The notes under the pieces were generated by a model, which was not told where the DNA came from, made no database searches, and saw only the letters and a program-made list of their open reading frames with translations. Source: Polyangiaceae bacterium (GTDB taxonomy: Bacteria; Myxococcota_A; Polyangia; Polyangiales; Polyangiaceae). From it: DNA of 64,000 nucleotides. This document shows positions 8,115-53,092 of this stretch, in pieces. A program made the position numbers and the translations under genes. Within the stretch, counting starts at the first letter, position 1, and each line of letters opens with the position of its first letter. The stretch is from NCBI GenBank assembly GCA_044222475.1, contig JBGANF010000008.1, forward strand, positions 34,688-98,687, given 5' to 3'.

Positions 8115-9038
8115 CTACGCCGCGAGGAGCTCTTCGAACAGCGCGCGAGCCACGCCGTCCGCCGTCGCTCGGTCGGGGATGCCGAGCGCGAGACCGGCTT
8201 CGCCGGTCACCTCGTCGGCGCGGAGGCGTTCCGCGGCCGCGCGACGCGCTTCGTCCACGGTGGCGCGGTCCCGAGCGGACAGGCGCGGCTCGATCCACCC
8301 GGCGACGCGCCACGCGAGGTCCGCGTGCCGCGCCTCGTCGATCGCGATGCGAGCCATCGCGACGCGGATCCGCTCGTCGCCAGCGGTGCGACCCTGGACT
8401 GCGGCGACCGCAGCGGCGAAGGTCTCGTGGACGCACCCCTCGACCGCGTTCTCGAGGGCGATCTCGAGGAGCGACCGTCGACGGAATTGTACCACATTGG
8501 GACGACGGACCAACGCCCCGTACTTTTCAGCGAGCGCGGTCATGACGAGGGCGTGGCGCACCTCGTCCTTCGCGGCGATGCGAGCGCCACGAATCAGCGA
8601 CGCCGGCGCGCCGGCCACCTCGAGCTCGGCCGCCAGGATCTCGAACGCGTCGACGGAGGCCGCCTCGAAGAACGCCGCGCGCGCGAGCCACTCGCCCACC
8701 GCCGACCCGCCTTCGGAGACCCACTCTTCGAGCCCGTCGGGCTTCCGCCCCGGGCAGCCGTTGCCGCACGTCACGACGGAGCCGCCGAAGTACGAGCAGC
8801 TCGTCGCCTGACCGCAAAGACGCTGACAGAGCTCGGCGTTGCCCGTCCCCCCGTCGTTGAAGCCGCACGCGTTGGGGTCGCCGATGATCTGGACGGAGTA
8901 GCCGCATGCTCCGAGCTGATCGGGGATGGCCGACTGGCAGTCGTCGCCCACGGCGCGTCCGCCGCACGCGAGAGCGATCGGAGAACCGAGGGCGACGACG
9001 AGGGCAGCGCGCAGCGCATGGTGAACGCGTGAGGTCAT
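8115..9038 (-). CDS. ferritin-like domain lipoprotein with Cys-rich N-terminal module
   Basis: Signal peptide, then an 18-Cys module (CGGRAVGDDCQSAIPDQLGACGY...). The C-terminal half has E/H-containing helices (AKDEVRHA, EGCVHETF, DEARHADLA) typical of ferritin-like di-iron folds. There is a paralog at 55013..56068. Confidence 0.55.
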   Translation of the reverse strand: MTSRVHHALRAALVVALGSPIALACGGRAVGDDCQSAIPDQLGACGYSVQIIGDPNACGFNDGGTGNAELCQRLCGQATSCSYFGGSVVTCGNGCPGRKPDGLEEWVSEGGSAVGEWLARAAFFEAASVDAFEILAAELEVAGAPASLIRGARIAAKDEVRHALVMTALAEKYGALVRRPNVVQFRRRSLLEIALENAVEGCVHETFAAAVAAVQGRTAGDERIRVAMARIAIDEARHADLAWRVAGWIEPRLSARDRATVDEARRAAAERLRADEVTGEAGLALGIPDRATADGVARALFEELLAA

Positions 9039-10006: not shown

Positions 10007-11275
10007 TCACGGATCTTCGGCGCGAATCAGGTGCGTGCCCAGGTTGTCGCCGGCGAGGAAGTACACGAAGTTCCCTTGCGGCCGCGCGACTCCGCCCGGA
10101 ACGGCGATGCCGTTCGTGACGTAGACCGCCACGAGCTTCGGCGAACCACCCGCGCCGGGGGCGCGATAGACCTCGACCTGCTTCGAGAACGGGTCGCGAG
10201 CGGTCCAGTACACGTCGGGACCGGCGACGATGATGTTGCCGGTCCGGTATCCGAGGAAGCGACCGCTATCGAGGGTCTGTGCCTGCGCGCACGCGCTCGG
10301 CGCCGCCGGGCAAGAGCGCACGTTCGACTTTCCCGTGTTCGTGTCCGTCTCGGACCAGGCGACGTACTGCTTGCTCGCAGCGACGGTCGCGGTCGCGAGG
10401 CCGCCGGAGTCCCAGAAGAGGCCCGCCCCGTTTTGCACGCCGGTCCTGCCGTACCGAATCTGGTTCGGGCTCACTCGGCTCCAGAAGACGTTCTGGTTGG
10501 TGTCCGTCGCGATGTCTTGTGCGCCTTCGGAGCTGCCGTCGTTGAGCGGGAGCTGCGAGGTGAAGTCGAGCTTGACCTGGAGCGGCACCGAGATCGACGT
10601 CACGTAGAGAGACGGCCCGTCGATGTCGAGCGCGTACGGCGACGACCACTGCACCGACGTGTCGTTCAGGTTGTTGCGGTTGATCGAGTGGAGCTTGTTG
10701 TTGTTGAAGTCGGGGGCGAACACGGTCGTCGCGTTGACCGCGACGTCGCCAGGGAATGCGAGCCCGCTGATGACCTTCGCCGGCGGGGTCGCGCAGCCCT
10801 GGACCGGACAGTCGAAGACGCTGCCGTTGTTCGAGTTGATGGTCGTGAAGAACAAGTGCCCGCCATCGAAGACCAGCGACGTCGCGTCCTTGTCGGTCGT
10901 GAGGCCGATCTCGACCGGCAAGCACTTTCCCGCGACGCACTTCGCACCGCCGCAGTCGTGGCCGCAGGTGCCGCAGTTCTTGGGGTCGTTGTCGACGTCG
11001 AGGCAGGTGTTGGCGCAGCAGGCTCCCTTGTTGCACGCCGGGCCCGACGAGCAGCACTGCTCGGTGATCTGCCCGCACTTCGGGCCCACGTCGGGAGGCG
11101 GTACGACCTGGTCTTGCGACACGTCGGGCGTCCCCGGGATGTCGTCGACGACGTCGGGCGTCGACGCGTCCTTCTTCACGGACGTCGTCGTGAAGTCACC
11201 GAGGATCTGCGCACAACCTCCGATGCCGAGGAAGCCCAGGCCCGCGAGCGCACCGAGAACGACGACCTTGCGCAT
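10007..11275 (-). CDS. secreted Cys-rich lipoprotein (predicted repeat/beta-propeller-like C-terminus)
   Basis: Only the 3' 1269 nt of the listed ORF 10007..12595 look real. The signal MRKVVVLGALAGLGFLGIGGCAQ begins at the ATG at 11275 (cat at 11273..11275 on the top strand). A Cys-rich module CGQITEQCCSSGPACNKGACCANTC follows. The upstream part of the ORF is Arg-rich junk. Confidence 0.55.
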   Translation of the reverse strand: MRKVVVLGALAGLGFLGIGGCAQILGDFTTTSVKKDASTPDVVDDIPGTPDVSQDQVVPPPDVGPKCGQITEQCCSSGPACNKGACCANTCLDVDNDPKNCGTCGHDCGGAKCVAGKCLPVEIGLTTDKDATSLVFDGGHLFFTTINSNNGSVFDCPVQGCATPPAKVISGLAFPGDVAVNATTVFAPDFNNNKLHSINRNNLNDTSVQWSSPYALDIDGPSLYVTSISVPLQVKLDFTSQLPLNDGSSEGAQDIATDTNQNVFWSRVSPNQIRYGRTGVQNGAGLFWDSGGLATATVAASKQYVAWSETDTNTGKSNVRSCPAAPSACAQAQTLDSGRFLGYRTGNIIVAGPDVYWTARDPFSKQVEVYRAPGAGGSPKLVAVYVTNGIAVPGGVARPQGNFVYFLAGDNLGTHLIRAEDP

Positions 11276-11306: not shown

Positions 11307-11843
11307 TCACCACTCGATCGTGAGGAGCGAGGTGAACCCCATCGCCTTGACGGGCGCACTGGCGCCGACGTTGGACGAGTCGTCGACGTGGACGGCCGAC
11401 AGCGCGTCGAGGACGCACTGCCGCGCAGAGGGATCGACCGAGGTGCCCGCCTGAGGCTCGCCGACGATCCGACCGTGATCGGCGCGGAGTCGCAGGACGA
11501 GCTTCCCGCCGGTCGCGCCGCGACAGCCCTCGATCGAAGGGACGGTCGGGGTGAAGAGCACCGCCGTCTGATCTCCGGTGCGCCCGGTGATGTTCGTGAA
11601 CGCGATGCTCGCGCGCCACGACGGGACCACGGTCGAGGCGTCGACCGCGGCCACGACGCCGGCGTCGCCCATCCCGAACGACGCGATGCTTGCGTCGGTC
11701 GGCGCGGCGGTTGCGCCGGTCGAGGTCGCGGTCGCGGTGGTCGACGCGGCAGGAGCGACCGGTTGCGCTTGCGGCGACCCGCAGGCAAACGCAGCGAGGA
11801 CGACCGGCAGGAACATCGGTGCGAAGCGGAGGGCGTGGCGCAT
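11307..11843 (-). CDS. hypothetical lipoprotein
   Basis: 178 aa starting MRHALRFAPMFLPVVLAAFACGSPQ, with a Thr/Ala-rich linker and normal composition. Confidence 0.5.
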   Translation of the reverse strand: MRHALRFAPMFLPVVLAAFACGSPQAQPVAPAASTTATATSTGATAAPTDASIASFGMGDAGVVAAVDASTVVPSWRASIAFTNITGRTGDQTAVLFTPTVPSIEGCRGATGGKLVLRLRADHGRIVGEPQAGTSVDPSARQCVLDALSAVHVDDSSNVGASAPVKAMGFTSLLTIEW

Positions 11844-11899: not shown

Positions 11900-12691
11900 A
11901 TGCAGATCGACCGATCGCGGTTCCTTCTCCTGACGACCGCCATCGCCGCCGGCAACGCGGCGTGCACTCCCGGCGAACCGTCGTCCCCGACGAGCGTCGC
12001 CACCGTGACGGAAGCGCCCGACGCGAGCACCGGCCCGACGGCCGAAGGCACCTCGTCGCCGACGCGCGAAGGCATGGGTCCGACGCGCGAAGGCGGCATG
12101 GGTCCGACGCGCGAAGGCGGCATGGGTCCGACGCGCGAAGGCGGCATGGGCCCGACGCGCGAAGGCGGCATGGGTCCCACGCGCGAGGGAACCCCGATCG
12201 CATCGGCGACGGCTCCGGCCACGTCGGCGAGCTCGGCGCCGCTCCCGCCCGGTTGCCCCGACAGCGACAACATGGTGGGCACCGTCGGCAACTGCAACAC
12301 GCTGCGCGCGCCCGGTCCGCAGTGCGAGAGCTTCAACGACACCAAGGACGATTGCGGCCACCTCGCGCGCGGCTTCAAGCCGCGCGTCGCGCAGAAGGCC
12401 GTCGCGTGCATCCTCGCGAAGAGCGGCACGCAGGCGATCTGCGATTTCTCCCTCGTCCAGAAGTGCAGCGCGTCCGCCGCTGCCGACTCCTGCCTCGATC
12501 CAGCCACCGGTCCGGCGTGCGACACCATCATGTCGACCTGCGCGGGTCGCGGTCGCGGCCGCGGCACCACGCTCACCCGAGTCGCGTGCATGCACGCGCT
12601 CTCGGCGCTCACGGGATCGAACCGGAGCCGCGTCGGCTCGTGCATCGCCGAGTCCTGCGGCGTCGAGCTCTGCTTCTACGATCTGAAGTGA
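11900..12691 (+). CDS. lipoprotein with tandem GMGPTREG octapeptide repeats and Cys-rich C-terminal domain
   Basis: Signal MQIDRSRFLLLTTAIAAGNAAC. Five tandem in-frame repeats TREG(G)MGP are encoded by 24-nt units. The C-terminal domain has 14 Cys. It is followed 1 nt later by the Mur ligase gene. Confidence 0.6.
   Translation: MQIDRSRFLLLTTAIAAGNAACTPGEPSSPTSVATVTEAPDASTGPTAEGTSSPTREGMGPTREGGMGPTREGGMGPTREGGMGPTREGGMGPTREGTPIASATAPATSASSAPLPPGCPDSDNMVGTVGNCNTLRAPGPQCESFNDTKDDCGHLARGFKPRVAQKAVACILAKSGTQAICDFSLVQKCSASAAADSCLDPATGPACDTIMSTCAGRGRGRGTTLTRVACMHALSALTGSNRSRVGSCIAESCGVELCFYDLK
12061..12192 (+). repeat. in-frame tandem repeat, about 5 units of 24 nt (acgcgcgaaggcggcatgggtccg)
   Basis: Directly visible as one 21-nt unit followed by four 24-nt near-identical units. 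It encodes TREGMGP/TREGGMGP inside CDS 11900..12691. Confidence 0.85.
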
Positions 12692-12692
12692 G

Positions 12693-13907
12693 ATGGCTCA
12701 TTTTCCGTCGCCTCCTTCGTGGGCGCGCGAGCTCCGCACCGTCGGGGTGACGGGAACCAACGGGAAGACGAGCACGACGCGCTGGGTGGCCGCGGCGCTC
12801 CGAGCGATGAACCGCGGGCCGGTCGTTCGCGTGACGACCGTGGGCGCCTTCCTCGACGACGAGCCGCTGAACGTGGACGAGACCTACGACGGGTTTCTCG
12901 CCGCGATGGAAGCTGGTCGGTCGCGCGGAGGAAGCCTCGCGGCGATCGAGGTCACGAGCGAGGTGCTCGCGCTCGGCTTCGTCCACGCGTGGCCGGTCGA
13001 GGTCGCGGTGTTCACCAACCTCTCGCACGATCACCTGGATGCGCATCGAAGCGCGGAGCACTACCTCGCGAGCAAGGCGCAGCTCTTCATGCACCTCCCA
13101 CCGAACGGGGCGGCGGTGCTCAACGCGTTCGATCCCGCGAGCGCGTTGATCCGCGAGGTCGTCCCCGAGGGCGTGCGGGTCGTGACGTACGGAGCTCCGA
13201 GTCGAGGCGAGCGGATCGAGACCGCGTCCGTCGACCTGCGCGCGTCGTCCGTCCGCGTGAGCTGGGAGGGCACCGTGGTGGAGCTCGCGCCGAACGACGC
13301 GCTCGCGCTGCCACGGGTGATCACGATGCGCGCGATCGGCGAGATCTACGCCGAGAACGCGCTCGCAGCGTTGGGCGGCGCGATCTCGATCGGCGCGAAC
13401 GCCGCGTCGGCGGCTGCCGCGATCGGCGCCGCGCCGCCGCCGGAAGGGCGATTCGAGGTCGTCGCGCGCGACCCGCATGTCGTCGTGGACTACGCGCACA
13501 GCCCCGATGCGCTCGCCCGCACGCTGCGAACGGCGCGAGGTCTGACCCGCGGCGAGCTCGTCGTGGTCTTCGGAGCGGGCGGAAACCGTGACGCCACGAA
13601 GCGCGCGGCGATGGGCGAGGCGGCGCGCGGCGCCGATCGTGTGATCCTCACGAGCGACAACCCGCGTGACGAGGATCCCGCCGCGATCGCGGCGGCGATT
13701 CGCGAGGGTCTCGCCGGTCATCGGGCGGTCGACGTCGTGATCGATCGCGCGGAAGCCATCGCGCTCGCCATCCGCGAGGCGAAGGCCGACGACGTGATCG
13801 TCGTCGCCGGCAAGGGTCACGAAGTGACCCAGACGGTGGCCGGCGCGACACGATCGATGCGCGATCGGGAGCTCGCACGCGACGCGCACGCTCTTCGCCG
13901 CGCCTAG
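12693..13907 (+). CDS. Mur ligase family protein, MurE-like (DNPR motif) lacking the N-terminal UDP-binding domain
   Basis: P-loop GVTGTNGKTSTT sits at residue about 20, whereas in canonical MurE it is near residue 110. The central domain motifs and C-terminal DYAHSPDAL, GAGGNRD and LTSDNPRDEDP (the DAP-recognising DNPR motif of MurE) are present. Size is 404 aa. Confidence 0.7.
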   Translation: MAHFPSPPSWARELRTVGVTGTNGKTSTTRWVAAALRAMNRGPVVRVTTVGAFLDDEPLNVDETYDGFLAAMEAGRSRGGSLAAIEVTSEVLALGFVHAWPVEVAVFTNLSHDHLDAHRSAEHYLASKAQLFMHLPPNGAAVLNAFDPASALIREVVPEGVRVVTYGAPSRGERIETASVDLRASSVRVSWEGTVVELAPNDALALPRVITMRAIGEIYAENALAALGGAISIGANAASAAAAIGAAPPPEGRFEVVARDPHVVVDYAHSPDALARTLRTARGLTRGELVVVFGAGGNRDATKRAAMGEAARGADRVILTSDNPRDEDPAAIAAAIREGLAGHRAVDVVIDRAEAIALAIREAKADDVIVVAGKGHEVTQTVAGATRSMRDRELARDAHALRRA

Positions 13908-14452
13908 CTGGCCGAGATCGCCGTCGCCTCGAGCAGGACCGTCCCGCCGTCCCCGACGATCTCGATCGAGAGCTTCGCGACCAGCTTCAGCGGCTGTGAC
14001 CGAGCCGAGACCGTCCAGTCGAACATCCCTCCGCGCATCTTCCCCGTCTCGTCGAACCACAGCGTGGAGCCACCCAGCGTGCGCGACTCTCCCGGTGCGA
14101 GCGTCACCTCGACGCGCTCCACCGGCATGTCGGTCGCCGGGATCCCGAGCGGAATGGCGCGCCCCGACGTCGGGTCGCTCACCGTGAGCTGGAACCCGAG
14201 GGGCCGGAAGTACGCAACCTTCTGCGCCACGCTCGCGCGATTCTCGACCGCGAGCGCCACGCGAAGCGCGTCTCCGCCTGCGTGCTCCGACGTCGTGGTG
14301 ACCTTCAGGACGAGGTCGTGCACTGGAACGGCCGCGACCGCGGTCGCGGTCGCGGTCGCGGGAGCGCTCGGCACCGACGCGGCGGTGGGGCTGTCGCGGC
14401 CACATCCGAGCGTGACGACGGCGAGCATGGGACCGACGAAGCGACGCATCAT
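13904..14452 (-). CDS. hypothetical lipoprotein
   Basis: The real start is likely the MM at 14452..14447 (MMRRFVGPMLAVVTLGCG). The upstream part of the listed ORF has no signal peptide. Its 4-nt overlap with the Mur ligase stop is convergent. Confidence 0.45.
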   Translation of the reverse strand: MMRRFVGPMLAVVTLGCGRDSPTAASVPSAPATATATAVAAVPVHDLVLKVTTTSEHAGGDALRVALAVENRASVAQKVAYFRPLGFQLTVSDPTSGRAIPLGIPATDMPVERVEVTLAPGESRTLGGSTLWFDETGKMRGGMFDWTVSARSQPLKLVAKLSIEIVGDGGTVLLEATAISAS

Positions 14453-45391: not shown

Positions 45392-46387
45392 TCATCCTCG
45401 CATGGATCGGCGGCCCGTGCGGCGCCTGTGTCGGGCCAGCGCGGCGCGGACGAGCTGGCGGGTGAAGCCCACGTGACCCGCAGGATCGTTCGCGAGGCAC
45501 AGGTCCGCGCTCCCGTAGTCCTTGGGGAGGTAGTACACGCCGCAGTTGGGGTTGATCTCCAGCATGTACGGAACGCCGTCGCGATCGACCCGAAGATCGC
45601 ACCGCCCGAAGCTCGCGCCGTGGAGCGCGACGAAGAACCTCGCAGCAGCGTCGCGCAGGCGCGCGTCGAGGGCGGGATCGGCGACCGGCGCACCCATCAT
45701 CTTCCCGTAGTCCACCCACTTCATCTTGGCGTGCTTGAACGTCTCGCCTTCGGGGAAGACGTATTGGATGGGCGTGTAGGTCGTCGGGTGCGCCGGGTCG
45801 TCGGGGTTCTCGGCCACGAGGACGGTGCACTCCGTCCCTTCGATGAACTCCTCGATCAGCGCGGCGCCGTGCTTGCCGATGATCTTCTTCGCCTGAGCGC
45901 GAAGACCGGCGGCGGTCGTCACGCGCGATCGCTTCGTGAGGTCGACGCTGGAGTAGCTCGAGTAGTGCTTCACGAAGAGCGGAAAGCGCAGCGTCGCCGC
46001 GGCTCGCTCGACGTCCTTGGCGTTGCGCGCGAGCACGAACGCCGGAGTGGCGATGCCCTGTGACTTGCACGCGCGCTTCATCGTCTTGCGCGAAGGCTCG
46101 TAGAAGATCGACGTCGCGCCGGTGAACGGGACGCCGGCGCGCTCGAGCGTCTTCACGACCTCGATGCCGGGGACGGTCTTCTGGTCGGCCGCTCCGTCGC
46201 ACAGGTTGAAGTAGAGGTCGAAGCCTTCGGCGATTCGCCTCTTCACCTGCTTCACCGACGTCGGTCGCTTCAGGTACTCGACCTCCCACGTGGCCTCTGG
46301 GTAGAAGGGCCTCGGGTCACAGGGCCAGTCGTCCTTGGGGAACGGGTCGGCGAGGAGATCCTGATTCGTCAGGAGACAGATGCGCAT
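45392..46387 (-). CDS. ATP-grasp domain enzyme (D-Ala-D-Ala-ligase-like fold)
   Basis: Start MRICLLTNQDL (ATG at 46387). Motifs FPLFVKHYSSYSSVD, EEFIEGTECTV and the C-terminal GRCDLRVDRDGVPYMLEINPNCG are typical of ATP-grasp ligases. Confidence 0.7.
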   Translation of the reverse strand: MRICLLTNQDLLADPFPKDDWPCDPRPFYPEATWEVEYLKRPTSVKQVKRRIAEGFDLYFNLCDGAADQKTVPGIEVVKTLERAGVPFTGATSIFYEPSRKTMKRACKSQGIATPAFVLARNAKDVERAAATLRFPLFVKHYSSYSSVDLTKRSRVTTAAGLRAQAKKIIGKHGAALIEEFIEGTECTVLVAENPDDPAHPTTYTPIQYVFPEGETFKHAKMKWVDYGKMMGAPVADPALDARLRDAAARFFVALHGASFGRCDLRVDRDGVPYMLEINPNCGVYYLPKDYGSADLCLANDPAGHVGFTRQLVRAALARHRRRTGRRSMRG

Positions 46388-46410
46388 GGGCACGCGGGAG
46401 CACTGTACCA

Positions 46411-46670
46411 CTAGCAGGCTGCGGAAAAACGCCCAGGCACGTAGCGTGCCCTCCTGCCAAGACCGCGAACCTGATGCTCGGGAGCGGGAGCGGGAAGGGA
46501 TCTGTACCAAACTGGGACACTTGTGACGAAGTGGCCACTTTCATAGCGATTCACGATGTCCTCGGCCGTCGAGCATCTTCCCGCTCCCGCTCCCGAGCGG
46601 CGACCTACCCAACCGGTTGGAGGGCACGCAAACCTGCAACTACGCTTTTTCCGCAGCCTGCCAGGCGCGC
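46411..46670. repeat. large imperfect palindrome (three inverted-repeat blocks) in intergenic region
   Basis: Block1 gcaggctgcggaaaaa (about 46416) pairs with tttttccgcagcctgc (about 46649). Block2 gcgtgccctcc (about 46444) pairs with ggagggcacgc (about 46621). Block3 ctcgggagcgggagcgggaag (about 46477) pairs with cttcccgctcccgctcccgag (about 46577). The centre contains the palindrome gtggccac. Verified by manual reverse-complement comparison. Confidence 0.8.
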
Positions 46671-48305: not shown

Positions 48306-49448
48306 ATGCCGTATCTGTTCGAGACCGAAGAGCACGCCACGCTCCGCGCGAACGCGCGCAAGTTCGCCGAGAAACACATCGCGCCGCATGCGTCGGCGTG
48401 GGAAGAAGCCGAGGAGTTCCCGCGCGAGCTGTACAAGACGATCGCCGCGGCGGGGTTGATGGGCCTCGGATATCCCGAGGCCGTCGGCGGCGGGGCAGGG
48501 GACATCACCCACGTGCTCGCGACCAGCGAAGAGATGGTCCTCGCCGGCAAGAGCGTCGGCACGGTGGTCGGGCTCGGGTCCCACGGCATCGCCCTCCCGC
48601 CGATCGTCGCGTCGGGCACGAAGGAGCAGATCGATCGCTTCGTGCGTCCGGTGCTGCGCGGCGAGAAGATCGCCGCGCTCGCGATCACGGAGCCCGGCGG
48701 CGGCTCCGACGTGGCGAGCCTGCGCACGCGCGCCGAGCGCGATGGCGATTTCTTCGTCGTGAACGGAAGCAAGACGTTCATCACGTCGGGCGTGCGCGCC
48801 GACTTCGTGACGACCGCCGTCCGCACCGGCGGGCCTGGCCACGGAGGCGTGTCGCTGCTCGTGATCGAGCGCGGTACGCCGGGGTTCTCGCAGTCGAAGA
48901 AGCTCAAGAAGACCGGCTGGTGGGCGAGCGACACGGCCGAGCTCACCTTCGACGGGTGCCGGGTACCCGCGGCGAACCTCATCGGATCGGAGAACGCCGG
49001 CTTCTTGGCGATCGTCGCGAACTTCGTCAGCGAGCGCGTGTTCCTCGCCGGCCAATGCGTCGCCATCGCCGAGCTCGCGTACCGTGAAGCGATCGCCTAC
49101 GCGAAGGAGCGCCAAGCCTTCGGCAAGACGCTCACCGGCTTTCAGGTGACGCGCCACAAGCTCGCCGACATGGCGACCCGAATCGCCGCTGCCCGCGCGC
49201 TCACCGGCGAGGTCGCGTCGCGCTACGTGCGCGGCGAGCAGACGCCGAGCCTCGCGGCGATGGCGAAGAACACCGCGACCGACATGTGCTCGTACGTCGT
49301 CGATCAGGCCGTGCAGATTCACGGCGGCTACGGCTACATGCGCGAGTTCGTCGTCGAGCGCTTGTACCGCGACGCGCGCCTCTATCCGATCGGTGGCGGC
49401 ACGCGCGAGATCATGAACGAGATCATCTCGAAGACGGAAGGGTACTGA
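48306..49448 (+). CDS. acyl-CoA dehydrogenase
   Basis: ACAD signatures ALAITEPGGGSDVASLRT, FVVNGSKTFITSG, QIHGGYGY and the C-terminal YPIGGGTREIMNEII. The likely start is the ATG at 48306 (MPYLFETEEH). Confidence 0.85.
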   Translation: MPYLFETEEHATLRANARKFAEKHIAPHASAWEEAEEFPRELYKTIAAAGLMGLGYPEAVGGGAGDITHVLATSEEMVLAGKSVGTVVGLGSHGIALPPIVASGTKEQIDRFVRPVLRGEKIAALAITEPGGGSDVASLRTRAERDGDFFVVNGSKTFITSGVRADFVTTAVRTGGPGHGGVSLLVIERGTPGFSQSKKLKKTGWWASDTAELTFDGCRVPAANLIGSENAGFLAIVANFVSERVFLAGQCVAIAELAYREAIAYAKERQAFGKTLTGFQVTRHKLADMATRIAAARALTGEVASRYVRGEQTPSLAAMAKNTATDMCSYVVDQAVQIHGGYGYMREFVVERLYRDARLYPIGGGTREIMNEIISKTEGY

Positions 49449-49455
49449 TCGCGTC

Positions 49456-50526
49456 GTGAACGACTCCGCGGCTCTCCACGATCTCGCCTTCTCGCTCGAT
49501 CTCTCCGAGCTCGCTGCGCTGCGCGCCCAGTTCGAGCCGATCGTCGGCCCGGCGGCGCAGGAGGCTCGGCGCGCCGCGCTCACCGCCGCGTACCGCGATC
49601 AAGGGATCGCGCTCGTCCTCGGTGCCGGCGTGAGCGTCGGCGTGGGCGCACCGAGTTGGACCGAGCTCATGGGGCGCCTCGTTCTCGGCGTCGTCGGCGC
49701 AAAGCTCGAGCCCGGCATGCCGATCAGTCCGCTCTACGAGCCGTTCAGTCGTCTGCTCGGCGAGACGCTCCCGAGCGACGCGCTCGTCGTCGCGCACTAC
49801 GCCAAGCTCGCGCTCGCCAACCGAGCACAGCCCACGGACGAAGCCTTCATCCGCGTCCTCCGTTCGGCGCTGTACCCCCCGGCCGCGCTGGCCGCGAGCG
49901 ACCTCTTGGCCGAGCTCGCCGCGATGTGCAGTCCTCCGGAGGACGGCGCCGTCGGAGTTCACGAGGTGATCACCTACAACTACGACGAGTTCTTCGAGGA
50001 GGCGCTCGTCGCGGCGGGGATCGATTTCCAGACGGTCGATCGCAACGAGCGTGCGCGCGGCGCGCTGCCCGTCTTCCACCCGCACGGGATCGTCCGTCGT
50101 GATCCGAGCTCCACCGGCAACTGGGTGGTCCTCGCCGAGGACGAGTACCACCGGCAGTTCGCCGCGCCTCACTCCTGGTCCAACGTGGTTCAGCTCAACG
50201 CCTTCAGTCAGATGCGGTGCTGCTTCGTCGGATCGAGCATGACCGATCCGAACCTGCGAAGGCTCCTCGCCGCCGCGCACACCGGCGGCCCGCCCGAGCA
50301 CTTCGCCCTCCTGCGCCGGCGGAGCGTCGCCGGCACGCTGCGGCGCATCGCCGACGCGTACGACGGCATCCCCGCCGAGCTGCAGCCGGCGCTGCGCGCG
50401 CGGGTCCAAGTGGCCTGCCTCGGTGGCGACGTGGCGGACGACATGACGCTCGCCGCGCTCGGGACGCAGGTCGTCTGGTTCGACGAGTTCGAAGAGCTCC
50501 CCGGTCTCCTCCGCGCGCTCACGTGA
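49456..50526 (+). CDS. SIR2-like domain protein (SIR2_2 / PF13289-type), GTG start
   Basis: Motifs in the family order: IALVLGAGVSVGVGAPSWTELM (GAG-S...P-W), VITYNYDEFFEEAL (TNYD box), VFHPHGIV (HG) and CCFVGSSMTDPNLRRLL (F-G-S-x-D-N). No Zn-ribbon of canonical sirtuins. 7 nt after the acyl-CoA DH stop and 13 nt before the next gene. Confidence 0.7.
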   Translation: MNDSAALHDLAFSLDLSELAALRAQFEPIVGPAAQEARRAALTAAYRDQGIALVLGAGVSVGVGAPSWTELMGRLVLGVVGAKLEPGMPISPLYEPFSRLLGETLPSDALVVAHYAKLALANRAQPTDEAFIRVLRSALYPPAALAASDLLAELAAMCSPPEDGAVGVHEVITYNYDEFFEEALVAAGIDFQTVDRNERARGALPVFHPHGIVRRDPSSTGNWVVLAEDEYHRQFAAPHSWSNVVQLNAFSQMRCCFVGSSMTDPNLRRLLAAAHTGGPPEHFALLRRRSVAGTLRRIADAYDGIPAELQPALRARVQVACLGGDVADDMTLAALGTQVVWFDEFEELPGLLRALT

Positions 50527-50539
50527 TAGAGGACGGTCC

Positions 50540-53092
50540 ATGTGTGGCGTCATCGGGTTGATCTACGAGCGTTCGAGGGATGATCTGGGGCAAGTCGCGG
50601 CCGAGCTTCTTCGTACGCTCGAGTATCGCGGCTACGACTCCACCGGCGCCGCGATCCAGGGCGACGGCGAGGACGTCGTCCTCGCGAAGGGCGTGGGCGC
50701 ACCGTCCGTCATGGTGCACGACCTCGGCATCACGCGGATGCGGGGCCGTGCGTTCTGCGGACAGGTCCGATGGGCCACCTTCGGGGCGGTGACCAACGAG
50801 AACTCGCAGCCCCACGTCGTCCGCTGCAAGACGTTCCTCTACGGCGCGCACAACGGCAACGTCACCAACTGCGACGATCTCAAGGCGTGGCTCACGTCGG
50901 AGGGGCACGCGGTGCTCTCCGACAACGACGGCGAGATGGTCGTCCACACGGTGGAGCACTTCTTCGCCCGCGAGCTCGACCGCTCGGCCGAGAAAGACGC
51001 GAACGCGCGGCGCCGCTGCATGCGCGCCGCGCTACTCACCGCCGCGGCGAAGCTCGAGGGATCGTTCGCCGCCGTCATCGTCGACCCGGTCACCCGCGTG
51101 ATGTGGGCGATCAAGCAGGGCTCGAGCTTGTATTTCGGCGTCGGTCACGACGCGGTCTCCGGCCACTTCGCGATCGCGTCGTCGGATTTGTCGTCGGTCC
51201 TCAAGCTCACGCGCGTCGTCGTCCCGATCACCGAGGGCGAGTTCGTCGAGTACGAGCCGGGCTCTCACCAGATCTACGCGATCGTGGATCGGCCGGCGGC
51301 AAAGCTCCGTGCCGGGCAGCCGCTCGATCGCGAGCCGGTACGAAGCCGCCTGCGCGCGAAGGACACGGCGCTCATCCCTCCGTTCGAGACGTTCATGGAT
51401 CAGGAGATCAGCGCACAGGCCGACACCGCGCGCGAGGTCGTGACCCTCTTCCTCGGCGGGTCGGAGGCTGCCCGGGCGATCGGCTCGGTCGCGCTCCGGC
51501 CCGAGATCGCGACGCACCTCGATGCGCTGCGCGATCTCTACGACGACGATCGCATCAAGACCGAGTTCCACGCTCTCGTCGATCTGCCCGCCTTTCGCGA
51601 GCTCCTCGAGAAGGTGCCCGACGTGGTCGCCCGCGCCGAGCAGCTCCACTCGGCGGAGGCCGGGTTCTTCACCGACCTCTTGTCGATGGCGCGGGACCGC
51701 TCCGACACCGTGGCGGTGCGCTTGCTCGATGCCATCCTCGAAGCCGAAGAGGTGCGCGAGTACGGCGCGCTCGTCGACCGCTTCGGCACGATGTGCCTCG
51801 ACGCACTGTCCGCGCGCGGGCGCATCTACGTCATCTGCTGCGGCAGCTCGTACCACGCGGCCAAAGCGGCGAGCCTCTTCTTCAACGAGCTCGCCCACGT
51901 CGAGCTCACGCCGATCCTCCCCGGCGAGTTCCGTGGTCAGTCCGCGAAGTCGCTCGCCGACGGCGATCTCGTGATCGCGGTGAGCCAGAGCGGCGAGACG
52001 AAGGACCTCATCGACGTCCTCAACGACGTGATCGCCTCCGGGCGCGCGGTGCGCCGCGTTGCGCTCGTGAACAACGTGAACTCCACGCTCGCGCAGGAGA
52101 AGAGCGACCTCGTGATCCCGCTCCGCTGCGGCCCCGAGATCGCGGTGCCGGCCACCAAGAGCTTCATGAACCAGATGGTGGTCTTCTACTGCCTCGCGCT
52201 CCACCTCGCCGAGCGGCGCTCGCCGGCGGCGAAGGACCTCGCGGTGCGGCGCGAGAAGCTGCGCTCGCTCCCCGAGCTCGTCCGCGAGACCGTCGCCACG
52301 ACCGACGTCGACATCGAGGTCGCGGCGAAGCTCCTCTACTTGTCGCCGAGCATCCACCTGCTCGCGACCCGCATCTCTGCCGTCGCCAAGGAGGGCGCGC
52401 TGAAGATCCGCGAAGTGGTCCTGAATCACACCGAGGGCTTCGAGGCCTCGGAGTTCAAGCACGGCCCCAACACGATCCTCGGGTTCAACACGGTGCTCGG
52501 ACCGGGGCGCGTCGACGCGATGCTCAAGCGCCTGGGGTTCATCCTCCGCAACGTCGTCTCCGAAGCCGCGCGCGAGAAGATGGATCCCGAGTCGGTGCAG
52601 CGCGTGATCCAGGCGGCGACCGACTCCGTCCTGTCACCGACGTCGACGCCCTTCTCGCTCTCGGCCGCCGAGCGCGCGCTGTTCGAGCGCACCGTCGATC
52701 ACGCCGAGCTCGTCGCCGAGCTCTACGCCGACTACCCGCTCGTCTACGTGACCGGGCCCGACGAGCGCGACGTGGCGCTCACCGTCTCGCAGATCAACAC
52801 CCACAAGATCCGCGGGTCGTGCACGGTCGTCGTCGCCGAGGATCACCCCGCGCTCCGCGGCGCCGCCACCAAAGCGCCGATCGACAACGCGTCGTACTGC
52901 TCCGTCTACATCACGCTCCCGCGCACCGACGACACTCTGATGGCGATGTTCTCGGCCACCGTTGCGCTCCAGCGGCTGGCGCTGTCGATGAGCCTCCTCA
53001 AGAAGCACTACCTCGACCGTCTCGGAATCGCCGAGCACGGAGTCCACCCCGACGTGCCGAAGAACGTGAGCAAGTCGATCACCGTCGATTGA
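50540..53092 (+). CDS. atypical GlmS-like protein: class-II (Ntn) glutamine amidotransferase domain + two SIS domains, 850 aa with insertions
   Basis: The catalytic Cys is right after Met (MCGVIG). SIS motifs are VICCGSSYHAAKAA, VIAVSQSGETKDLIDVL and EGALKIREVVLNHTEGFEASEFKHGP, with a C-terminus PKNVSKSITVD like GlmS PRNLAKSVTVE. A roughly 130-aa insertion lies between the FMDQEI linker and the first SIS domain, and further insertions follow. An SD-like GAGGA is 6 nt upstream. Confidence 0.75.
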   Translation: MCGVIGLIYERSRDDLGQVAAELLRTLEYRGYDSTGAAIQGDGEDVVLAKGVGAPSVMVHDLGITRMRGRAFCGQVRWATFGAVTNENSQPHVVRCKTFLYGAHNGNVTNCDDLKAWLTSEGHAVLSDNDGEMVVHTVEHFFARELDRSAEKDANARRRCMRAALLTAAAKLEGSFAAVIVDPVTRVMWAIKQGSSLYFGVGHDAVSGHFAIASSDLSSVLKLTRVVVPITEGEFVEYEPGSHQIYAIVDRPAAKLRAGQPLDREPVRSRLRAKDTALIPPFETFMDQEISAQADTAREVVTLFLGGSEAARAIGSVALRPEIATHLDALRDLYDDDRIKTEFHALVDLPAFRELLEKVPDVVARAEQLHSAEAGFFTDLLSMARDRSDTVAVRLLDAILEAEEVREYGALVDRFGTMCLDALSARGRIYVICCGSSYHAAKAASLFFNELAHVELTPILPGEFRGQSAKSLADGDLVIAVSQSGETKDLIDVLNDVIASGRAVRRVALVNNVNSTLAQEKSDLVIPLRCGPEIAVPATKSFMNQMVVFYCLALHLAERRSPAAKDLAVRREKLRSLPELVRETVATTDVDIEVAAKLLYLSPSIHLLATRISAVAKEGALKIREVVLNHTEGFEASEFKHGPNTILGFNTVLGPGRVDAMLKRLGFILRNVVSEAAREKMDPESVQRVIQAATDSVLSPTSTPFSLSAAERALFERTVDHAELVAELYADYPLVYVTGPDERDVALTVSQINTHKIRGSCTVVVAEDHPALRGAATKAPIDNASYCSVYITLPRTDDTLMAMFSATVALQRLALSMSLLKKHYLDRLGIAEHGVHPDVPKNVSKSITVD

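Follow-up and report, generated by a model that had tools for sequence, protein, structure and literature searches.

A 64-kb stretch of a Polyangiaceae genome (64,000 nucleotides of contig JBGANF010000008.1, hereafter the window) carries two adjoining genes, one for a predicted lipoprotein (11900-12691) and one for a short ligase that resembles MurE (12693-13907). We found that this ligase is no one-off truncation: it is a full-length member of a distinct and widespread clade whose proteins begin at the linker that follows domain 1 of MurE. The genes for the ligase and the exported lipoprotein form a conserved, tightly spaced two-gene unit that lies outside the division and cell wall (dcw) cluster. 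As judged from alignments, the clade keeps all residues needed for ATP- and Mg-dependent acyl-phosphate chemistry, plus those that hold meso-diaminopimelate (meso-DAP or mDAP). Three defining features of MurE were tested, namely possession of domain 1, its acceptor-pocket residues and a place in the dcw cluster, and the ligase has none of them. It is probably a neofunctionalised enzyme that is functionally tied to the lipoprotein.

A short MurE-like ligase that begins after domain 1

The ligase gene and the motifs discussed below are as follows.

12693-13907 (+): short MurE-like ATP-dependent amino-acid ligase gene, 404 amino acids, central and C-terminal domains only (Pfam, NCBIfam, PDB, AlphaFold and Foldseek)
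12753-12770 (+): ATP P-loop GTNGKT, residues 21-26, invariant in canonical MurE and the short clade
12882-12896 (+): TYDGF, in place of the canonical T-T-P loop (alignment)
12954-12980 (+): TSEVLALGF, residues 88-96, in place of S-S-H-x-L-x-x-x-R (Ser to Thr, His to Glu, Arg193 to Phe)
13056-13088 (+): EHYLASKAQLF, invariant; Lys128 (13074-13076) aligns with the carbamylated MurE lysine, E. coli K225 (K224 in published numbering)
13656-13667 (+): DNPR, residues 322-325, by which MurE recognises meso-DAP (alignment; role from PMC3829189)
13809-13823 (+): GKGHE, in which Glu377 aligns with E. coli Glu468 (alignment; role from PMC3829189)

Pfam matched the ligase solely to Mur_ligase_M (PF08245, residues 19-228, 121 bits) and Mur_ligase_C (PF02875, residues 252-375, 109 bits), which places it in the Mur ligase superfamily; neither the N-terminal domain PF01225 nor an ATP-grasp domain was found by this search. 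NCBIfam MurE profiles align to it only from profile positions 83-110 and then through to the profile ends, and its alignments with MurE chains in the PDB begin at about residue 100 of MurE. The AlphaFold model (predicted local distance difference test, pLDDT, 91; predicted template modelling score, pTM, 0.90) has a fold resembling MurE, MurC and pMurE structures, and in Foldseek it overlays domains 2 and 3 of MurE only, with template modelling (TM) scores of 0.83-0.85 (normalised to query length) and 0.67-0.72 (to target length). The first residues of the ligase correspond to the inter-domain linker following domain 1. The initial annotation, made from the letters and their open reading frames (ORFs), had described a ligase with its P-loop at about residue 20 that lacked the N-terminal domain of MurE and retained the central and C-terminal domains with the DNPR motif, and it had called for a structure-based assignment of domains; profiles, structure alignments and model agree with it on every one of these points. 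A hidden N-terminal extension, which the same annotation had named as something that would refute it, is ruled out by an in-frame TGA at 12684-12686, two codons 5′ of the ATG, together with a tblastn search of 45 canonical MurE N-domains against all frames of the 64-kb window that returned noise only. The ORF has coding-type composition, with a third-position GC content (GC3) of 0.86 in a window of 67-74% GC. Promoter and terminator scans of this high-GC DNA found nothing, and PADLOC defence models matched neither the ligase nor the lipoprotein gene.

The same architecture recurs in more than 120 homologues with at least 59% identity (E-values as low as 1e-250), all of which are 388-434 amino acids long, carry the same two domains and share x-F-P-P-P-P-x-W as a conserved start before the P-loop. 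We defined the short clade by a P-loop at most 50 amino acids from the start, T-S-x-x-L-x-x-G-F replacing S-S-H...R, and a retained DNPR; the window ligase, with TSEVLALGF at residues 88-96, belongs to it. When 1.84 billion representatives were searched exhaustively with phmmer, about 50 short ones (P-loop within 50 amino acids of the N-terminus) came up, with 41-55% identity to the window ligase. Nearly all of these have T-S, Phe96 or another residue that is not Arg, and a residue other than Asn at position 219, whereas SSH...R...N was found in all but one of the representatives with a full N-domain. One bipartition of an unrooted neighbour-joining tree set 41 F-type and 11 other short sequences apart from all 87 canonical ones; with the tree rooted on E. 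coli, the short sequences did not come out as a monophyletic group. A profile scan of genome contigs, in which one of the two patterns was the universal P-loop, returned canonical MurE at 78 of 80 loci and the family at L007 and L008 only, with an identity gap between the family (at least 56%) and canonical MurE (at most 42%).

Profile scores give a mixed picture. The ligase passes the TIGR01085 murE subfamily model (301.8 against a cut-off of 257.3) and falls under the cut-off of all MurE equivalog models, for example NF001124 (309 against 476) and NF001126 (301 against 373). Across MurE profiles it scores 302-323 bits, compared with 109 bits for CphA (cut-off 850) and 49 bits for FolC (cut-off 163); the PgsB/CapB model was absent among the 25 best NCBIfam matches, in a search that included no comparison aimed at PgsB/CapB. 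Public annotation calls its relatives MurE or 'Mur ligase family protein', and the NCBI annotation pipeline PGAP gives the Polyangium aurulentum orthologue only the latter name. One protein of 532 amino acids (P0098) is a short MurE-like ligase with a DUF952 domain (PF06108) fused at its C-terminus.

We compared residues between 45 canonical MurE sequences from many phyla and 117 short sequences (53-85% identical). The short clade keeps the P-loop (K25), E86, D113/H114, K128, H269, R299, DNPR and GKGHE (E377). Aligned to E. coli residues, the catalytic set of P-loop Lys, Mg-binding Glu and His and the carbamylated-Lys position is invariant at the sequence level, and so are the mDAP-site residues DNPR 322-325, R299 and E377, the latter two corresponding to E. 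coli Arg389 and Glu468. In MurE, DNPR recognises meso-DAP, the incoming diamino acid is bound through its amino group by Glu468, and domain 1 binds the uridine nucleotide of the uridine diphosphate N-acetylmuramic acid (UDP-MurNAc) dipeptide (PMC3829189, which also covers the roles of the carbamylated Lys). A different set of positions has been switched. T158/T159/P160, which is 93-100% conserved in the 45 MurE sequences, is x-Y-D in the short family, and S185 has become T, H187 E (100%), R193 F (100%) and N308 Y (84%); the replaced pocket positions are 84-100% conserved among canonical MurE. We take the switched positions (T157/T158, S184 and R192 in E. coli) to be ones that contact the MurNAc-L-Ala-D-Glu part in the E. 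coli MurE product complex. MurE remains the closest match in sequence and fold, with 35-47% identity over domains 2 and 3 along with the same P-loop, Mg ligands, carbamyl-Lys position, DNPR, Arg389 and Glu468. The ligase differs from it in having no UDP-binding domain, in the replacement of TTP, SSH...R and Asn308, in its location outside dcw and in belonging to a separate clade.

A conserved pairing with repeat-bearing lipoproteins

Directly upstream of the ligase lies the gene for its putative partner.

11900-12691 (+): predicted lipoprotein gene, 263 amino acids, with a signal-like N-terminus, a PTRE linker and a 14-Cys helical domain (ORF, homologues, conserved upstream of the ligase)
11900-11965 (+): N-terminal MQIDRSRFLLLTTAIAAGNAAC, whose n-region is nearly invariant, with a hydrophobic core and with Cys22 (lipobox-like; alignments)
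12059-12187 (+): tandem 8-amino-acid repeat GPTREGGM with six P-T-R-E motifs (Tandem Repeats Finder: 24-nt unit, 5.5 copies, 94% matches)
12254-12688 (+): Cys-rich domain, residues 119-263, 14 Cys, predicted all-helical (predicted structure)
12684-12695 (+): gene junction TGAAGTGAGATG, read directly: ligase-frame stop 12684-12686, lipoprotein TGA 12689-12691, 1-nt spacer, ligase ATG at 12693

The lipoprotein ORF has a GC3 of 0.88 and encodes 15 Cys, namely Cys22 and 14 within residues 119-258. Its status as a lipoprotein and secreted protein is read from the sequence, without a signal-peptide predictor. We collected 109 homologues (E-values as low as 1e-99), all of which come from Polyangia (Polyangium species and Polyangiaceae bins), are annotated 'hypothetical' and have no Pfam match; a search for structural relatives of the 14-Cys helical domain found none. 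The upstream gene had been described at the outset as a secreted lipoprotein with GMGPTREG repeats and a Cys-rich domain. Repeats and Cys are present and the sequence reads as that of a lipoprotein, but the repeats are confined to the closest relatives and do not characterise the family. Two ideas on export and attachment were set aside. The invariant N-terminus resembles S/T-R-R-x-F-L-K, the signal for twin-arginine (Tat) export, but just a single Arg falls in register, and L007 reads R-A-Q. Attachment of the Braun type through a C-terminal Lys would suit the window protein, whose last residue is K, but across the family this residue is K, R, E, H or Q.

The ligase had been placed 1 nt past the lipoprotein stop in the initial annotation, and the junction reads so. 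The suggestion that conservation of the pair be checked in relatives, which for this window are uncultured Polyangia (Myxococcota) and Polyangium species, was taken up: the lipoprotein lies directly 5′ of the ligase in 12 distinct Polyangia loci, the window and 11 others (L002/L003, L004, L005, L006, L007, L088, L091, L092, L095, L098 and L099). Gaps at the paired loci range from 0 to 85 nt (0-2 nt in many) and lipoprotein identity from 29 to 71%, while the remaining neighbours differ, and no gene besides the pair is common to all three subclades. LGT, p100/p280, PLD, DUF2330 and a TLC-like transporter were considered as conserved neighbours and rejected, each being confined to one subclade. 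No dcw genes were found in the window or in 10 related neighbourhoods.

Two features of the Polyangium lineage may be recorded here: a DUF2330 gene lies between or near the pair (L090:8643-10166, L008:425-1813 and L087:10553-12052), and a PLD-like gene is found 5′ of the lipoprotein with a TLC/MFS-like transporter gene 3′ of the ligase.

The pairing is also seen in a second arrangement, in which the short MurE-like module is fused behind MurF.

L102:10001-12733, L103:10001-12712 and L104:8001-10730: MurF-short MurE fusions (proteins P0391, P0393 and P0247; also P0234)
L102:12730-13266, L103:12709-13263, L104:10727-11212 and L105:3987-4493: genes for the lipoprotein partners of fusions

In these proteins of 845-930 amino acids, a MurF module that is nearly complete (TIGR01143, about 295 bits, profile positions 7-417) precedes a MurE-like module bearing the short-clade signature and without domain 1; one of the proteins comes from a Labilithrix bin. 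The fusion genes lie outside dcw clusters in three lineages (L102, L103 and L104-L109), and the next gene 3′ of each overlaps its stop by 4 nt and encodes a small lipoprotein. These lipoproteins begin MK[VI]NRE[QK]FLAAA...C, where the window protein has MQIDRSRFLLLT...C, and they contain 7-amino-acid tandem repeats of the form [GA]-P-x-x-E: GPTREVA in 11 copies, GPSREx in 8 and APNNENI in 5-6, the last varying in copy number across metagenome samples (161 against 168 amino acids). Pro and Glu are constant in these units and in the GPTREGGM of the window. Among 9,155 six-frame ORF segments (1.3 Mb), clusters of at least three P[TSA][RK]E motifs occurred only in ligase-adjacent lipoprotein genes. 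Because fusions with the reversed gene order adjoin repeat lipoproteins, the association of ligase and lipoprotein outlasts both a change in gene order and a domain fusion. MurE-MurF chimeras such as that of Bordetella pertussis (PDB 8F5D) likewise hold both module types in one chain; the fusions described here differ in having MurF before MurE, a MurE without domain 1, a location outside dcw and a coupled lipoprotein, and the survey of chimera classes in PMC10214165 does not include MurF-then-MurE order with a domain-1-less MurE.

Some further observations concern these proteins. In both lipoprotein families the N-termini are almost invariant (MQIDRxRFL and MKVNREQFL; window 11900-11940) and look like a Tat motif in which the arginine pair is broken. 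Five divergent MurF-like proteins (P0419, P0428, P0433, P0413 and P0435) of 590-770 amino acids score below the MurF cut-off and have an extra C-terminal 100-250 amino acids; in some of them this extension gives a partial match to another Mur central domain and is perhaps a degenerate second module. A search for co-variation of pocket residues 90/94 with the residue before the repeat Glu was given up, as just four repeat-bearing ligase-partner pairs are too few.

The acceptor of the ligase

The initial annotation had held the ligase unlikely to act in the cytoplasmic peptidoglycan pathway and had suggested a different acceptor, possibly a peptide or protein. The first part gains from the distinct clade, from the loss of domain 1 along with residue replacement and from the location outside dcw; as to the second, the identity of the acceptor is something we infer. 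A different acceptor, possibly a peptide or protein, is our leading idea because the clade is distinct and lies outside dcw, its mDAP residues are kept and its coupling to a lipoprotein is conserved. We propose that the ligase would activate a carboxylate not borne on UDP-MurNAc and amidate it with meso-DAP or a close analogue. The likeliest acceptor would be the precursor of the co-encoded lipoprotein before export, through Glu side chains of the [GA]-P-x-x-E repeats or of an acidic linker. In the MurF-short MurE fusions D-Ala-D-Ala would be added next, giving Glu-mDAP-D-Ala-D-Ala. Such a stem-peptide-like handle could then allow periplasmic transpeptidases to fix the lipoprotein covalently to peptidoglycan.

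Our confidence differs between the parts of this proposal. As a whole, amidation of a non-UDP carboxylate with mDAP, most plausibly on the partner lipoprotein, is the best explanation we can offer, and we hold it tentatively, at a level that is itself a compromise. That the lipoprotein is the substrate we count as a minority possibility in its own right. The further step, in which mDAP on its Glu side chains (with D-Ala-D-Ala in the MurF-fused form) makes a stem-peptide mimic that transpeptidases cross-link into the sacculus, is speculative.

A mechanistic precedent exists in cyanophycin synthetase, whose Mur-like M domain amidates side-chain carboxylates of a peptide. Like the proposed activity, the M domain of CphA1 works on carboxylates along a peptide backbone; it differs in being fused to an ATP-grasp domain, in adding Arg onto Asp and in its distance from the ligase (109 against 850 bits), and cyanophycin synthetase entries of the PDB were among the structure-database matches of the ligase. 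If the partner becomes covalently linked, its functional analogues would be Braun lipoprotein (Lpp) and other peptidoglycan-tethered outer-membrane proteins. Lpp differs in being attached through its C-terminal Lys by L,D-transpeptidases without a cytoplasmic ligase, whereas the C-terminal residue of the partner varies (K/R/E/H/Q); the two have no sequence or fold similarity, the partner being a 14-Cys helical bundle and not a small coiled coil.

Several points weigh against the proposal. P-x-x-E repeats occur in just 4 of the 109 members of the Cys-rich family, the closest relatives of the window protein, plus the L002 locus, and in two subclades the ligase is found with a lipoprotein whose linker is non-repetitive. 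The Polyangium lineage splits the pair: in Polyangium spumosum, and apparently at L008 and L093 as well, a DUF2330 gene on the opposite strand stands between lipoprotein and ligase, and in P. aurulentum the two are about 16 kb apart. At L097 the lipoprotein is present and there is no ligase in the 1.4 kb downstream. For a cytoplasmic enzyme to act on a Sec-type exported protein, that protein would have to be modified ahead of its translocation. An N-terminal domain is retained in the MurF module of the fusions, which would also fit a nucleotide-linked substrate.

Other explanations must be weighed against lipoprotein modification. The strongest of them, which we judge plausible but less probable than our proposal, is that the ligase adds mDAP to a non-UDP acceptor related to peptidoglycan. 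This might be a precursor carried on a lipid, recycled MurNAc-peptide or free L-Ala-D-Glu peptide, and the reaction would serve repair, recycling or the making of an alternative stem peptide, with the lipoprotein only a co-expressed envelope component. The intact mDAP site and catalytic residues would suit such a role, and the fusion to a MurF module suggests two consecutive stem-peptide steps. There is also MurT, a Mur-family enzyme that has no domain 1 and acts on a non-UDP substrate, lipid II (PMC6113224). MurT shares the missing domain 1 with the window ligase but ends in a DUF1727 domain, works with the glutaminase GatD and transfers ammonia, whereas the C-terminus of the window ligase is a normal Mur_ligase_C with DNPR, and no GatD-like or amidotransferase neighbour was seen around it. 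Against a peptidoglycan-related acceptor, the replacements extend beyond the UDP-binding domain to pocket residues that are near-invariant in canonical MurE, and no peptidoglycan recycling or synthesis genes were found in the neighbourhoods examined. It also leaves unexplained the translational coupling to a P-x-x-E lipoprotein in two gene orders.

It is improbable that the ligase makes a small peptide, polyamide or other metabolite which the lipoprotein binds, anchors or exports. FolC, PgsB and the CphA M domain are two-domain Mur-family enzymes that use non-nucleotide carboxylates, and the weak matches to CphA and FolC profiles could be read in this light. These scores are far below their cut-offs (109 against 850 bits and 49 against 163 bits) with MurE far closer at 302-323 bits, and conservation beside the pair does not extend to a transporter, an ATP-grasp protein or any other biosynthetic partner. 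The comparison with PgsB and FolC that the initial annotation had called for is remote.

Adjacency might instead be inherited synteny, with ligase and lipoprotein working independently, as the restriction of all paired loci to one class (Polyangia) and the drifting apart of the genes in Polyangium would allow. We regard this as very improbable: the pair is the sole element common to three subclades with differing neighbours, spacing is 0-2 nt in many loci, and the association recurs in the MurF-fused relatives with reversed order and a 4-nt overlap. More improbable again is that the ligase is the housekeeping and only murE of the organism, working without domain 1. It passes the TIGR01085 cut-off, several pipelines name it MurE, and of the top-scoring full-length representatives, looked up in search of a second murE, none bore a Polyangia taxon name. 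Yet it falls below all MurE equivalog cut-offs, PGAP names its P. aurulentum orthologue only 'Mur ligase family protein', it is never found in a dcw setting, the TTP loop, Arg193 and Asn308, which hardly vary in canonical MurE, have been replaced, and its named relatives, among the matches listed, are only Polyangium, Labilithrix and uncultured myxobacterial bins. We give next to no weight to a catalytically dead or decaying paralogue serving as a scaffold like plant plastid PAP11, which with other MurE-like chains is among the structural relatives, as the catalytic and mDAP-site residues are invariant in 117 sequences, the frame is intact and codon usage is normal.

Surrounding genes and implications

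Other genes of the window deserve mention. Several predicted lipoprotein or secreted-protein genes without a Pfam family surround the pair, and one gene near it has a STIG1-like Cys-rich stretch.

10007-11275 (-), 11307-11843 (-), 13904-14452 (-) and 8115-9038 (-): predicted lipoprotein or secreted-protein genes; the product of the last has two [DE]E[AV]RH motifs and shows weak similarity to a 280-amino-acid protein encoded 5′ of the lipoprotein in subclade B
30911-32998 (+): bacterial vault-protein homologue with Major Vault Protein shoulder and repeat domains (PF11978, 92 bits; PF17795)
45392-46540 (-): ATP-grasp protein with a match (59 bits) solely to the C-terminal domain of D-Ala-D-Ala ligase, outside dcw and 32 kb from the ligase
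49417-50526 (+): SIR2_2-domain protein
50447-53092 (+): 881-amino-acid protein with GATase and SIS domains (GlmS-like); its stop-to-stop frame and that of the SIR2_2 gene overlap by about 80 nt

Mur ligases, familiar from textbooks and as targets of antibiotics, have been viewed almost solely as makers of UDP-MurNAc-peptides. In the literature we found no paper on a MurE without domain 1, on a MurF-MurE fusion or on a Mur ligase acting on a lipoprotein. The clade described here is large (about 50 clusters at 50% identity) and mis-annotated as 'MurE' or 'Mur ligase family protein'. Its members have lost the domain that binds the nucleotide, have a remodelled acceptor pocket and retain the mDAP site, and they are tied genetically to repeat lipoproteins, sometimes from behind a MurF module. 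Whatever the acceptor, recognising the clade corrects a widespread annotation error, and the gene pair with its short motifs opens the question of the acceptor to mass spectrometry. If the lipoprotein is the acceptor, the enzyme would be the first of the Mur ligases known to act on a protein, and the product would be a new protein modification. It would also give bacteria that have no Braun's lipoprotein a new way to fasten outer-membrane or envelope proteins to peptidoglycan. Together, the rebuilt ligase and its conserved partner suggest that cell-wall chemistry is put to a use not described before, perhaps with the lipoprotein as its target.

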